This document shows, in pieces, positions 3,667 through 51,930 of a stretch of 64,000 nucleotides of DNA; the stretch's first letter is position 1, and the number at the start of each line of letters is the position of its first letter. The notes below the pieces were generated by a model, which made no database searches, was not told the origin of the DNA, and saw only the letters and a program-made list of their open reading frames with translations. The stretch lies in assembly GCA_028714475.1 (NCBI GenBank), contig JAQTNC010000002.1:14609-78608 (forward strand), in the 5' to 3' direction. The DNA comes from Patescibacteria group bacterium. Lineage in GTDB: Bacteria; Patescibacteriota; Patescibacteriia; SG8-24. The translations under genes and the position numbers were made by a program.

Positions 3667-3725
3667 AAAATCCTGACGACCTTTGTCCAACGCTTCTTCG
3701 GCGCGGTCTGCAACATCTAGTCATG

Positions 3726-3734
3726 TGCTATAAT
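3726..3734 (+). promoter_or_regulatory. Extended -10 element TGcTATAAT upstream of the Zn-ribbon gene
   Basis: TGcTATAAT about 33 nt upstream of the ATG at 3767. RBS GGGAGGA 7 nt before the ATG. Confidence 0.4.
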
Positions 3735-20866: not shown

Positions 20867-20897
20867 GCCCGGCGTTTGCCGACGTCGGGCCAACCAA

Positions 20898-20922
20898 GCC
20901 CCGGTTTCTCACCGGGGTTTTG
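20898..20922 (+). terminator. Rho-independent terminator (gccccgg-tttctca-ccgggg plus TTTT)
   Basis: Direct read. Confidence 0.6.
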
Positions 20923-21127
20923 TAGTTCACCTCCGCCGAATGCCCCGGGCGCGGTGCCCCACGAAGCATTGCGTAGTGGGGTCAGCCCGGGTTCCTGACG
21001 CGTGAATCCCCCGAAGCCCGGAGGGCGTAGGGGGCAGCGGGCTACGGTGAATGAAACAGGATGGGGCGTTAGATACCCCGGGCGTGAGCCCGTGGAGTCT
21101 TCATTGAAAAAATTTGCGAATACACAA

Positions 21128-21157
21128 GAGCGGCTGGCAGGTGCCAAGCCGCTCGTG
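21128..21157. terminator. Hairpin gagcggct-N11-agccgctc with T-run on the minus strand. Terminator for the minus-strand membrane protein gene.
   Basis: Direct read. Confidence 0.55.
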
Positions 21158-21204
21158 AGGAGACTGGTGTTATTTTTCATCCGTGAGACGGCCTGGCTGT
21201 CGAA

Positions 21205-21600
21205 TTAGCCGCGTCTTCGCGACACTCTGTCGGGCCACCGCCTTCTCCTTCTGGGGTTTCGTTTGGCGATGACTCGGTAGGCGAAGGTCGTGAAGGAGAC
21301 GACGGCGACCGTTGCCGTGCCGAACACCAACCAAGGGTGTCCGACAATCAGCGTTGCGATCGGCGCACTGACAAGCGCGATGCTGTAGATGGCCATGCCT
21401 ATCAGTGAGAGCTTCGGCTTGGATTTGTTGTCGCGGGATGTGTCGTAGAAACAAGCGTACACGACCCAAAAACCAAGACAGACCACATCGAGACCGAGCG
21501 TCCCCAGGAAGACCCTGGCGGGCGCGGCTAGTGGACCGTAAATGGACAGGACGACAGCGGCGAGCACGACGGACCAGAATGCGGAAAAGGCGATTTTCAT
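21205..21600 (-). CDS. Small membrane protein, unknown function
   Basis: 131 aa from MKIAFSAF. 4 TM. Confidence 0.5.
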   Translation of the reverse strand: MKIAFSAFWSVVLAAVVLSIYGPLAAPARVFLGTLGLDVVCLGFWVVYACFYDTSRDNKSKPKLSLIGMAIYSIALVSAPIATLIVGHPWLVFGTATVAVVSFTTFAYRVIAKRNPRRRRRWPDRVSRRRG

Positions 21601-21682: not shown

Positions 21683-22813
21683 TCATTTCACTTCGCCTTC
21701 CTTGGCGATGCCGGCCTTCTTCTCCTTGATGCCCTCCTTGAGCGCGTTGTACTTGTCCCAGGTGAGCAGCCAGATGAGCGCGATGGCATCGATGGCGTTT
21801 GCGATGAGGTACGGGCTGATCTCGTCGAGGCGCTTTTTGTAATTGGCATCCTTGACGATTTTGAGCTTCTTGTACTCGCTCTCCGTAACCGAATAGGGAA
21901 TGAAGTCCGTGGAGATGAGGTATGACGAGAAGCAGACGGCCTTGATGAGATCGTAGATTTTCTTGTTGCCTTGGCCGATGATGGCCTCGGTGAAGCCACC
22001 GCTTTTGGTGTTCTTGAGCGGCCATTTGCGCTGGTTGACGATTTGGAGCGCCTTGTACAGCACCGAACCCTTGAAAGCCTCGCGCTTGGCCGGATCGTCG
22101 AACAGTTCCGGCGCGCCGTCGATGTCGTAGTCGAACACGCCGCGCGGCTTGTCGAATTCGAAGTACTTGATGACCTCGTCGTCCCAGTAACCCTCCATAT
22201 CCGGATGGATGGTCGAGGGGCCGTAGAAATCGCGGTCATCGCAATGCGGCGGCACGTGGGCGTCGGCGACGTAATGGCTCAACATCAGGAAGTACAGCGT
22301 GAGCTGGTCGTCATTGAACATGATGTCCGAGCCCTTCGGCTGATCCATCTGGATGAGCACCATGTCGCGCAGGGTGTGGGTGAGCGCTTCGCAACGGTCG
22401 GGGAGGGTGTAGTCCTCCAGGCGATAGACCTTCTCGTCCAAGCGCGCCTCCTTGATGCCCATGTCCATGACCGGGCTCATAAATTTCGGCAAACGGTTCG
22501 CGAACCCGACCGCTTGCTTCGTTTCCGTGTCGGTCTCCGGCTTTTTCAGCTTGAAAGTGTGGCCGCCGACCAGGTTATCGGCGATGACGGAGTCGGGAAA
22601 CCACGCCCCTTTGAGGAACGAGTCCTTATGCTTGTCGAAAAGCGTGACGAAGCGGTCGGCCTGCGCTTGGTAGTAATCATCGAAAGTGTCGCCGAGATAA
22701 AGTCCCGGCAGGTTCGCGGTCATGAAGCCGGTCTTGCGCGAGCCGGCTTTCGGCAGGCGCTTCAGGCGCTCGAGGGCCATGAGGGCCACCCAAGCATGAG
22801 CGATGGATTTCAT
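21683..22813 (-). CDS. S1/P1 nuclease / zinc-dependent phospholipase C superfamily protein
   Basis: 376 aa. HYVADAHVPPHCDD matches the Zn-binding H-x3-D-x-H-x-P-x-H block of P1 nuclease. N-terminal HAW. Confidence 0.55.
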   Translation of the reverse strand: MKSIAHAWVALMALERLKRLPKAGSRKTGFMTANLPGLYLGDTFDDYYQAQADRFVTLFDKHKDSFLKGAWFPDSVIADNLVGGHTFKLKKPETDTETKQAVGFANRLPKFMSPVMDMGIKEARLDEKVYRLEDYTLPDRCEALTHTLRDMVLIQMDQPKGSDIMFNDDQLTLYFLMLSHYVADAHVPPHCDDRDFYGPSTIHPDMEGYWDDEVIKYFEFDKPRGVFDYDIDGAPELFDDPAKREAFKGSVLYKALQIVNQRKWPLKNTKSGGFTEAIIGQGNKKIYDLIKAVCFSSYLISTDFIPYSVTESEYKKLKIVKDANYKKRLDEISPYLIANAIDAIALIWLLTWDKYNALKEGIKEKKAGIAKEGEVK

Positions 22814-22972
22814 ATGAACAATCGCGTTAGCGAATTAAATAGCGCGGTTACGGCTGAAGAAATACGATTAGTCGGACGAAAGCACGTGACGGCATAAGCT
22901 GAACAGCCTGAATACATTATACCATCGGTTGTTCCGGCCTGAAAAACGTTGGTTTCGACTTGCGTCCAACCC

Positions 22973-23001
22973 TTGACAAGTTCGAGAAATTGTGCTATGC
23001 T
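22973..23001 (+). promoter_or_regulatory. Sigma70-like promoter: TTGACA, 17-bp spacer, extended -10 TGcTATGCT
   Basis: ttgacaagttcgagaaattgtgctatgct. Divergent from the nuclease gene. No ORF follows for ~650 nt. Confidence 0.6.
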
Positions 23002-23007
23002 GTTGTC

Positions 23008-23534
23008 AGTCTGAATAAATATCAAGAACAGCCGTCGCCCATCGTCCCCCGCGCCGAGATTTGGCGTGAACCGGGCATCGGGAGCGGCTCAACCAGAAAA
23101 AGAGAGGAGTCAGGGTGTTCACCTCGGGCTTTGTGTAGTGGGCCGGGCTTTGCCGGTTCGCACAACAAGTTTCGAAGTTCGGTACCTGTGGCCGGGCGCG
23201 TAGCCTGACCGCAGAGGGTATCACAACTTGAGCCCCACGGAGTGGGGAAGCGAACCAGGCGGGGTGTGTCAAGGCATACTTCGCTTGGCGAAAGGACCGG
23301 GTAGGTCCAACACGACTGCGAAACAGCATGATTGCTTGAGGTAATCCGGATTTTTCGAACCACCACCGGCGCGCGCATCACGGGTCTTCAGCCTGTGAGT
23401 GTTGCTCCGGGAGGGCGCTAAGTCAGCCGGAACCCTACGTCGCTATGGCAACTTGAGAGAGGGCATCCACGCTTGTGGCTCTGCCCTCTTCACCCTATCT
23501 GGACGATTTTTGCCCGCCGAAAGGCGGTTTTTTT
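23008..23534 (+). ncRNA. Candidate structured non-coding RNA (~520 nt), identity undetermined
   Basis: Bounded by the promoter above and a strong intrinsic terminator (ccgcc-gaaa-ggcgg plus TTTTTTT at 23512-23534). Several local hairpins, for example aagcgaa/ttcgctt and agagggca/tgccctct. No credible ORF on this strand. Confidence 0.4.
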
Positions 23535-23666
23535 ATCGGCTTGCGCTAGCAGCCGGCTTCTGGTAAACATGGGCGGCCAGCCGAACAAGGCCAGAAACCT
23601 TTGATACTTGTTTGGGGCTGTTTCTGCTATACTCAAGCCAGCCGAAAAGCTAGCCAACCATTTCGT

Positions 23667-24431
23667 ATGGAACCGTTCGTCAACGTTCACGTACCTTACT
23701 ATCAGTACCGTCCGCGCGAGCTCGTGCTCGATGACGTCGGACGCGAGTATTCCTCTATATTGAAGATTCACGACCTGCCGCCGGAGGAGAAGCCGCGCGA
23801 GAAGCTCGTGAAACACGGCCCGTCCGTTTTGTCGGTCGGGGAGTTGCTGGCCGTCGTTCTCGGCGTCGGTTCCCGCAAGGAGGGCGTGCTGGCCATGTCG
23901 CACCGTCTGCTCAAGGACTACGGCGAGAAGGCCATCATGCACGAGAAGGATCCCAAGAAGATCGCCGAGGCGCTGGACATCCCGCTCATCAAGGCCTGCC
24001 AGATCGTCGCCTGTCTTGAGCTCGGCCGACGTTTTTTCCGGAGCACGGCCATCGGTCGTCCGGAGTCGTTGCGCACGGCGCGCCAGGTCTATGAGTATTT
24101 GCGAGACATGCAGAGCTTGCCCAAGGAGCATTTGCGAGGGCTTTATCTCGACAGCCATTTCCGCCTGATTCACGACGAGGTCATCTCCATCGGCAGCGTG
24201 AGCGGCAACCTGGTGCACCCGCGCGAGGTTTTCCGGCCCGCCTTGGCCGTCTCCGCGGTCGCCGTCATTCTCGCGCACAATCATCCGTCCGGCGTGGCCA
24301 AGGCCAGTGCCGCTGACATTGACGTCACCAAGCAGCTGATTGAGGCGGGTCGCGTGCTCGGCATCACCGTCCTTGATCATGTCATCGTCACGCGCCGCGG
24401 CTTCGCTTGCGTGCCGGCGGATTATTCCTGA
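23667..24431 (+). CDS. radC: RadC-family JAB/MPN domain protein (UPF0758)
   Basis: HNHPSG JAMM motif. N-terminal helix-hairpin-helix-like region GELLAVVLGVG. Antisense ORF 23490-24767 rejected. Confidence 0.8.
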   Translation: MEPFVNVHVPYYQYRPRELVLDDVGREYSSILKIHDLPPEEKPREKLVKHGPSVLSVGELLAVVLGVGSRKEGVLAMSHRLLKDYGEKAIMHEKDPKKIAEALDIPLIKACQIVACLELGRRFFRSTAIGRPESLRTARQVYEYLRDMQSLPKEHLRGLYLDSHFRLIHDEVISIGSVSGNLVHPREVFRPALAVSAVAVILAHNHPSGVAKASAADIDVTKQLIEAGRVLGITVLDHVIVTRRGFACVPADYS

Positions 24432-51124: not shown

Positions 51125-51153
51125 AGGTATTGACGAGCTGAACAAAAGACGAT

Positions 51154-51180
51154 AATATCCTAGTAGAACACTAGGATATT
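51154..51180. promoter_or_regulatory. Perfect 11-N5-11 palindrome AATATCCTAGT-agaac-ACTAGGATATT overlapping a TTGACG-17-TAATAT promoter and followed by a T-run. Operator and/or terminator.
   Basis: Direct read. Lies between the cupin stop and the Rrf2-suf operon. Confidence 0.5.
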
Positions 51181-51474
51181 GTTTTTTGTCGTTTGGTGTG
51201 AATATCGAGCAGGCCATGACCACGAGCGGCCAGCTCCGCCGCCCGCGCGGGAGGCGCTCCGGGCCGGGCGCGTTCCACCCGCGCCCTTAAGACGGCCCTC
51301 CGCACCAGCCCTCGCGTGCGGCTCCGCTGGCCGCGAGACGCGTGAGTGACGCAGACGGATGAGAGAAAGGCGCTCGCAGGGTTACATGGCCCGACGGCAG
51401 TCAGGCCGATGCTCGCGTAAGGAAGGTTTCATGCGCCTAAATCAATACCTAAAGACGAAGAACCGATATTATTT

Positions 51475-51930
51475 ATGGCTCAACTCTTCCGCGTTCCCCA
51501 ACGGGTTCATCACGGCCTGCTCATCGCCACTGAATTGGCGTCGCTCCATCGGGGTGGCGGCTGGTTGTCGCTCGACGAAATGGCCCGCCGAACCAGCATT
51601 TCCCAAGGCTTCCTCGAACAGGCGGTGACGCCGCTTCGCCGAGCCGGCTTGGTGGACGGGCGCCGCGGTCCGCAAGGCGGCTACCGGCTGGCGCATGCTC
51701 CGCGAAGCGTGTCCGTGGCGGCCGTCATCGAGGCTATCGAAGGGCCGACATCCGTGGCCGCCTGCACCGGAGCCTCAGCCCACTGCGGGCTGGCCTCGAT
51801 CTGTTCCAGCCGAAAAATCTGGTCCGCGGTTCAAGCCAGCCTTGATCTGACCCTGCGGCGGCTCAAGCTGTCGGACCTCGCCGGCGGCTCCTGCTGTGGC
51901 GGACACGGAAAGAAAAAACACGAACCATGA
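51475..51930 (+). CDS. Rrf2-family (IscR/SufR-like) transcriptional regulator
   Basis: wHTH segment ...LSLDEMARRTSISQGFLEQAVTPLRRAGLVDGRRGPQGGYRLA. C-terminal Cys residues. Confidence 0.75.
   Translation: MAQLFRVPQRVHHGLLIATELASLHRGGGWLSLDEMARRTSISQGFLEQAVTPLRRAGLVDGRRGPQGGYRLAHAPRSVSVAAVIEAIEGPTSVAACTGASAHCGLASICSSRKIWSAVQASLDLTLRRLKLSDLAGGSCCGGHGKKKHEP

Follow-up and report, generated by a model that had tools for sequence, protein, structure and literature searches.

What, if anything, is encoded in the long gap upstream of radC in this Patescibacteria (CPR) genome? In the 64,000-nt stretch of DNA analysed here (the window), 877 nt separate radC from a divergent gene for a 376-aa phospholipase-C/nuclease-like protein. 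Few gaps in this compact CPR genome are as long as this one, which holds the candidate ncRNA unit that is the subject of this work, and none that lacks mid-sized ORFs is longer. The NCBI PGAP annotation is empty in it (the locus tags PHT12_00905, 00910, that of radC and 00920 are consecutive). Patescibacteria have genomes of about 1 Mb with few regulators, and we assume strong genome reduction in this host, in keeping with the rest of the group. To our knowledge, almost no ncRNAs have been described in Patescibacteria beyond the housekeeping set. The original prediction, made from the sequence alone, was a promoter-to-terminator transcript of about 520 nt, either a divergent housekeeping RNA or an unclassified large ncRNA. 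Our analysis of the transcription signals, coding potential, predicted fold and relatives of the element suggests that it is probably a real, lineage-restricted structured ncRNA that matches no known class.

Transcription signals of the locus

The unit opens with a sigma-70-type promoter on the plus strand (22973-23001), which consists of a perfect -35 box (TTGACA, 22973-22978), a 17-nt spacer and an extended -10 (TGcTATGCT, 22993-23001), and scores 10/12 in addition to the TG extension. This promoter had been predicted as near-consensus and divergent from the nuclease-like gene, and it proved to be unique in the 64 kb: TTGACA-N14-16-TGNTANNNT was found at one site when both strands of the window were considered, against 0.04 sites expected from shuffles. 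Furthermore, the core of the extended -10, TGCTATNCT, is present in five copies in the window (146, 22993, 23625, 52018 (-) and 57004 (-)) against 0.54 expected. Since this core is enriched, and one of its copies is located upstream of radC, it is plausibly a real promoter motif of the organism and the extended -10 element preferred by its lineage. The copy in question (TGCTATACT, 23625-23633 (+)) lies 34 nt upstream of the radC ATG (23667 (+); Pfam RadC and UPF0758_N), which suggests that radC is transcribed from a separate promoter located after the ncRNA terminator. According to promoter geometry, the transcript of the unit would start at A23008/G23009 (+), 7-8 nt past the -10.

At the other end, the unit is closed by an intrinsic terminator (CCGCC-GAAA-GGCGG followed by a run of seven T, 23514-23534 (+), dG -10.1 kcal/mol), which had been placed about 130 nt before radC and is separated from its ATG by 132 nt. 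Strict terminators, defined as a perfect stem of at least 5 bp with at least 4 G-C pairs and at least 6 T, are found five times in the window and 0.27 times in shuffles. Each of the other four comes immediately after a gene end; the organism thus relies on canonical terminators, and the one at 23514-23534 closes a stretch that holds no gene. Because two independent, rare and correctly oriented signals bracket an ORF-free gap, the transcription unit is very likely real. In addition, a short motif, GCC(C/A)GCCGAA, is repeated three times (23512-23521, 23576-23585 and 23637-23646) between the terminator and the 5' region of radC, with copies 61-64 nt apart, and could be either an operator-like repeat or a product of chance. 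Inside the gap no direct repeats longer than the chance expectation were found.

The divergent neighbour (21683-22813 (-), start at 22813) has a promoter-like site of its own (22945-22916) and belongs to no Pfam family. Its protein family, which is strongly conserved (40 sequences, 68% mean column identity, many invariant H and D residues), had no match in NCBIfam or PADLOC either, and its distribution over CPR bacteria, DPANN archaea and Phycisphaerae is patchy. When the 376-aa protein was modelled with AlphaFold (pLDDT 83), the closest structures were those of Zn-dependent phospholipase C and S1-P1 nucleases (Foldseek prob 0.97, E 0.045). Both here (21205-21600 (-)) and in the Uhrbacteria homologue, the next gene codes for a small hypothetical protein (131-148 aa).

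Coding potential of the gap

Coding potential was evaluated with a log-odds model of codon use derived from 26 long ORFs of the window, presumed to be genes. All ORFs of at least 30 aa in 22814-23650 scored between -0.14 and -0.33 bits/codon, whereas real genes scored between +0.2 and +0.7, and no frame was positive when the codon score was calculated in sliding windows over 22800-23600. None of the ORFs in the gap matched a Pfam family at E<=1, and neither tblastx of the gap against related loci nor self-blast within the window gave any match. Regarding the two minus-strand ORFs, the one of 119 aa had no homologue among 5.8 billion protein sequences, and the one of 107 aa gave a single match among 1.84 billion representatives, a 1666-aa repeat protein (P0216). 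This match was discarded as spurious, as a short SPLRGA-like string was matched in 13 stretches. All these data agree with the prediction that about 520 nt follow the promoter without any credible ORF. Elsewhere in the window, the codon score of ORF 389-1126 is neutral (-0.007), a possible sign of foreign origin.

It is also highly unlikely that the transcript is an mRNA for one or several very small proteins, such as a 7-codon GTG ORF at 23115 or plus-strand ORFs of 38-55 aa. Several short plus-strand ORFs are indeed present, and a strong Shine-Dalgarno-like GAGAGGAG is found 5 nt before GTG 23115, but this string is paired in the closing stem of the predicted fold (see below), every ORF combines a negative codon score with the lack of a family match, and the 55-aa ORF extends through the terminator. 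Known type I toxin peptides are hydrophobic, and no hydrophobic peptide was found among the candidates.

Predicted fold and strand specificity

The stretch had been described as rich in local hairpins, and our folding analysis extended this to a structure-rich RNA whose folding is strand-specific by z-scores. The 527-nt transcript has a minimum free energy of -223 kcal/mol, with z = -3.3 (-3.1 with separate dinucleotide shuffles), while its reverse complement gave z = -0.4 and 20 coding controls of 527 nt ranged from +1.0 to -2.7. The effect was strongest in a central domain (23100-23360, 261 nt), where the plus strand reached z values of -6.1 and -5.8 and the reverse complement gave -0.8 and -0.6, and it was also found in the 3' domain (-3.0 on the plus strand vs +0.2 on the minus strand). 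The central domain has 88 bp and a dG of -118.3 kcal/mol, and the asymmetry between the strands is explained by the fact that 22 of these pairs (25%) are G.U. At the 200-nt scale, however, a few other sites of the window reach z values between -3.5 and -4.6. Thermodynamic z-scores by themselves carry a known rate of false positives, and folding energy alone is weak evidence of function.

Strand-symmetric folding is a property of DNA palindromes and terminators, and two other structured gaps of the window (51125-51564 and 20867-21204) have equally negative z values on both strands. The first of them includes a GC-rich (60%) stretch of about 300 nt (51125-51475) upstream of ORF 51475-51930, behind a promoter-like TTGACG...GATAAT and a perfect hairpin. 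This stretch has z values of -4.3 and -5.0 on the two strands and no Rfam match (the best was RsmV, 13.8 bits), and the ORF is putatively Rrf2/IscR-like, as judged by its translation. The second includes non-coding DNA with 65% GC (20926-21110) between convergent terminators, that of a 489-aa gene (20898-20925) and a minus-strand hairpin near 21110-21165. The wider gap has z around -3.4 on both strands, with a minus-strand minimum of -4.6 at the 200-nt scale, and there was no Rfam match.

In the predicted plus-strand fold of the element, an A/U-rich 5' leader (23008-23029), mostly unpaired in both the MFE and the centroid structures, is followed by hairpin H1 (23030-23089), which has 21 bp and internal loops, pair probabilities of 0.5-0.95 and z = -2.2 for 23025-23095. 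An A-rich linker then leads to the central domain (23104-23356). This domain is closed by an irregular stem of 27 bp in which 23104-23136 pairs with 23326-23356, and the core of this stem is a 9-bp helix, ACCUCGGGC/GCUUGAGGU at 23121-23129/23334-23342, with a pair probability of 0.97. Inside the closing stem are a hairpin (23138-23161) and a second stem (23169-23179/23314-23324) that closes a five-way junction, from which four hairpins emerge (23181-23222, 23233-23247, 23255-23288 and 23294-23308), the third with 15 bp and p = 0.99. Lastly, the 3' domain (23357-23509) contains one hairpin of high stability (23366-23410) and, with less certainty, an extended stem (23413-23515) that bears another hairpin at 23454-23492.

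Searches against known RNA families

The proposed comparison with all Rfam models was carried out and gave no relevant match. At gathering score, none of the 4227 families of Rfam 15 was found in the whole 64-kb window, and at E<=10 only RAGATH-25 (17 bits) and a miRNA (14 bits) were recovered in 22800-23700 and 23005-23400. The RAGATH-25 match was rejected because it corresponds merely to the terminator. This result excludes a recognisable RNase P RNA, tmRNA, 6S, SRP, OLE, ROOL, GOLLD, raiA or HEARO RNA, riboswitch or group I/II intron. Furthermore, ARAGORN found no tRNA and no tmRNA in the window, and nothing in the region when run in tmRNA mode and with introns up to 600 nt. In line with the original prediction, the element cannot be recognised as RNase P RNA, tmRNA or 6S RNA. 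In the case of 6S, which is a rod of about 180-200 nt with a central bubble, the element is also set apart by its length (527 nt) and its branched fold.

The original prediction had nevertheless kept a divergent housekeeping RNA as one of its two options, pointing to strings that resemble parts of RNase P RNA. A highly diverged RNase P RNA missed by Rfam thresholds, as in some CPR genomes, has a precedent: in 10 of 35 circular CPR genomes no RNase P RNA was matched at default thresholds, and the diverged RNAs, which have extended or missing helices, were still recovered by RF00010 (Lui et al. 2021, PMC8172020). In the element, GAGAGGAGUCAGGG agrees with CR-I at 10 of 15 positions and follows a hairpin and an A-rich linker, and both ACAG..UGAUUGCUU and a GGGUA hairpin loop are present. 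The two strings originally noted, ACCGGGUAGG (23296-23305) and GCUUGAGG (23334-23341), are also there, although they carry no statistical weight. Indeed, in a fuzzy search with consensus strings, matches to the CR-I to CR-V strings were at or below chance, with none for CR-II, III, IV and V. In addition, none of the RNase P models (bacterial A and B, archaeal, nuclear and type T) was matched at E<=10, even when the search was restricted to 396 nt, and GCUUGAGG, which would be the 3' strand of P4, is taken by the 9-bp long-range helix (p = 0.97). The predicted topology is unlike P4/P5/P15/P18, and about 190 nt extend beyond the would-be P4 3' strand. Threading the element onto RNase P by hand was likewise rejected, with the conserved strings at chance and an incompatible predicted fold. 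All these data argue against the housekeeping option, and an RNase P RNA is a very improbable identity for the element.

A tRNA or tmRNA gene split by a group I intron, a type common in Patescibacteria and missed by standard tools, is even harder to reconcile with our results and we regard it as scarcely credible. Such tRNA genes have been described in Patescibacteria, where the introns were detected with RF00028 (Nakagawa et al. 2026, PMC13011429), and some relatives have tRNA genes at the position equivalent to that of the element. However, RF00028, the very model used in that study, is without match here, as are the tRNA and tmRNA models, all at E<=10, and the intron-tolerant and tmRNA searches with ARAGORN were negative as described above. 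The ends of the transcript also lack tRNA halves, and blastn-short with the tRNAs of the relatives gave only chance matches of 7-10 nt.

Relatives and conservation

The proteins that flank the gap assign the window to a Patescibacteria MAG of an isolated lineage. In the protein collection, identity to the best match is 71% for RadC and 70% for the 376-aa protein, and the RadC relatives are labelled Paceibacterota, Parcubacteria or Doudnabacteria. The element itself was found in two Logan contigs, from runs with adjacent accession numbers, which match the window over their whole length and offer no usable variation. We then compared both neighbourhoods of the gap. The radC set comprised 80 GTDB loci and the 7 nearest Logan, ENA or JGI contigs (69-71% RadC identity); upstream of radC in these approximately 90 relatives there was no comparable gap, and a few gaps held tRNA genes or small ORFs. 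The set for the 376-aa gene comprised the Uhrbacteria homologue and 26 metagenome loci, and the gaps upstream of these 27 homologues measured 28-358 nt and had no similarity to the element. As no copy accompanies the homologues of either flanking gene, the element is tied to neither neighbour.

A homology search, as proposed with the original prediction, was carried out in about 115-120 related loci retrieved through protein anchors and returned no diverged homologue: nhmmer with a 601-nt query found only self-copies in their ~835-876 kb, and a covariance model of the 164-nt five-way-junction core (R1) matched only itself in the same loci. Phages and plasmids were likewise negative in a 'distant' blastn search. 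Three exact k-mer scans of IMG/VR produced one 17-mer match in a 485-kb contig with dissimilar flanks, which was treated as chance.

These comparisons bear on whether the element could be a cis-acting leader of the radC operon, with transcription from 22973 continuing past the terminator into radC in the manner of a riboswitch or a protein-dependent attenuator. The element shares its strand with radC and lies 132 nt upstream of it, the lower terminator stem has a competing helix within ~2 kcal/mol (terminator pair probabilities of 0.56-0.98), and the GCC(C/A)GCCGAA repeats join the terminator to the radC 5' region. However, this alternative pairing is weak, so that the terminator is not a convincing or strong switch, and the extended -10 copy that would serve radC comes after the terminator. 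No riboswitch or leader family was matched in Rfam, such a leader is missing from the ~90 radC loci of the relatives, and 520 nt is several times the length of a typical leader. We therefore consider a leader function improbable.

A non-functional relic, that is, a decayed gene or a remnant of a tRNA operon with a leftover promoter and terminator, would give a transcript with no role whose folding comes from local G-rich composition. Several observations are compatible with this explanation: the element is missing from every relative examined, some of these relatives have tRNA genes just upstream of radC, the GC skew of the window peaks at the element (+0.21), and tRNA-Ile-like strings are present in it (GGGCGCGTAGC at 23194, and TTCGAACC...CGCGCGCA at 23354-23377). 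On the other hand, both transcription signals are intact and near-consensus, z is around -6 on one strand only even though the shuffles keep the dinucleotide composition, and no trace of similarity to a protein is left. Each of the tRNA-like strings is at chance level (E ~0.17); they cannot fold as a tRNA and have no Rfam tRNA match, and streamlined CPR genomes would be expected to shed unused DNA. A relic is thus an unlikely source of the element, yet one that deserves to be taken seriously.

Regarding the tRNA-Ile-like strings, those resembling the ends of tRNA-Ile(GAU) are 150 nt apart in the element (GGGCGCGUAGC at 23194-23204, and UUCGAACC then CGCGCGCA at 23354-23377), and a tRNA-Ile remnant was rejected because of their chance level and the lack of a tRNA fold. 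In five relatives tRNA-Ile is located at most 4 kb upstream of radC. In one relative, from Tayloriibacteriota (L039), radC is preceded by an intact tRNA-Ile and, some 70 nt further upstream, by a partial duplicate of the tRNA-Ile 5' half (AAATGCGCGTGTAGCTG..., 3680-3730).

A model for the element

The element has the features of a generic structured ncRNA gene, namely a promoter, a terminator, the lack of a coding signal and strand-specific excess folding. The product of the unit is best explained as a functional structured RNA, and we hold this prediction to be somewhat probable because of the strand-specific folding and because an unused gap of 877 nt is unlikely in a compact genome. In our model, the element would be a free-standing ncRNA gene with a transcript of ~527 nt. 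RNA polymerase would start about 7 nt past the extended -10, near 23008, and stop at the Rho-independent terminator at 23534. Its fold would comprise a 5' hairpin, a central domain of 250 nt and a 3' domain ending in the terminator as three modules, and in the central domain the long irregular stem would close first a three-way and then the five-way junction.

We infer that the unit is transcribed and that its RNA is stable. Since the unit has its own terminator and radC its own promoter motif, its most likely mode would be action in trans by a stable, structured molecule that could, for example, bind a protein or serve as an RNP scaffold, in one narrow lineage of Patescibacteria. More tentatively, the element might be the founding member of an undescribed class of structured ncRNAs of ~0.5 kb, stable and acting in trans or as RNP scaffolds, in a deep-branching and poorly sampled lineage of Patescibacteria. 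One sequence is not enough to define a class, however.

For metatranscriptomics and structure probing, a heavily structured RNA with a good promoter and terminator in such a streamlined genome would be a specific target that is cheap to examine. Should the element be a lineage-specific relic instead, it would be a useful warning that a promoter, a terminator and folding energy do not on their own establish function.

Comparison with known systems

Half-kilobase structured RNAs are rare in bacteria, and OLE, ROOL and GOLLD are structurally remarkable RNAs with unclear functions. The literature contained no described large ncRNA of CPR bacteria that corresponds to the element.

One parallel is offered by the diverged RNase P RNAs of CPR bacteria (PMC8172020). 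Both are stand-alone, strongly promoted structured RNA genes missed by default annotation, and a few short strings of the element resemble CR-I and CR-V. In contrast to those RNAs, the element has no RF00010 or RF00011 match at E<=10 and its conserved regions are not beyond chance; moreover, its predicted topology is incompatible with RNase P RNA and it is ~150 nt longer than usual. With the 6S and Ms1 RNAs the element shares an abundant-type promoter and a long irregular closing stem made from distant segments. It differs from them in being 2-3 times longer and in that its stem encloses multi-way junctions and not an open-promoter-like bubble, and neither the 6S nor the Ms1 Rfam models matched it.

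Lastly, the element is similar to OLE, ROOL, GOLLD, raiA and HEARO in its length of hundreds of nt, in its dense multi-helix structure with multi-way junctions, predicted in our case, and in its lack of coding capacity. ROOL and GOLLD are found near tRNAs, and there is a loose likeness in that some relatives carry tRNA genes at the site equivalent to that of the element. Unlike these families, which are known from hundreds of covarying homologues, the element is a single sequence; it matches none of their covariance models and it comes from a CPR bacterium and not from Firmicutes, phages or lake lineages. The element is in no known family, and its resemblance to the large orphan ncRNAs of bacteria is one of kind only.
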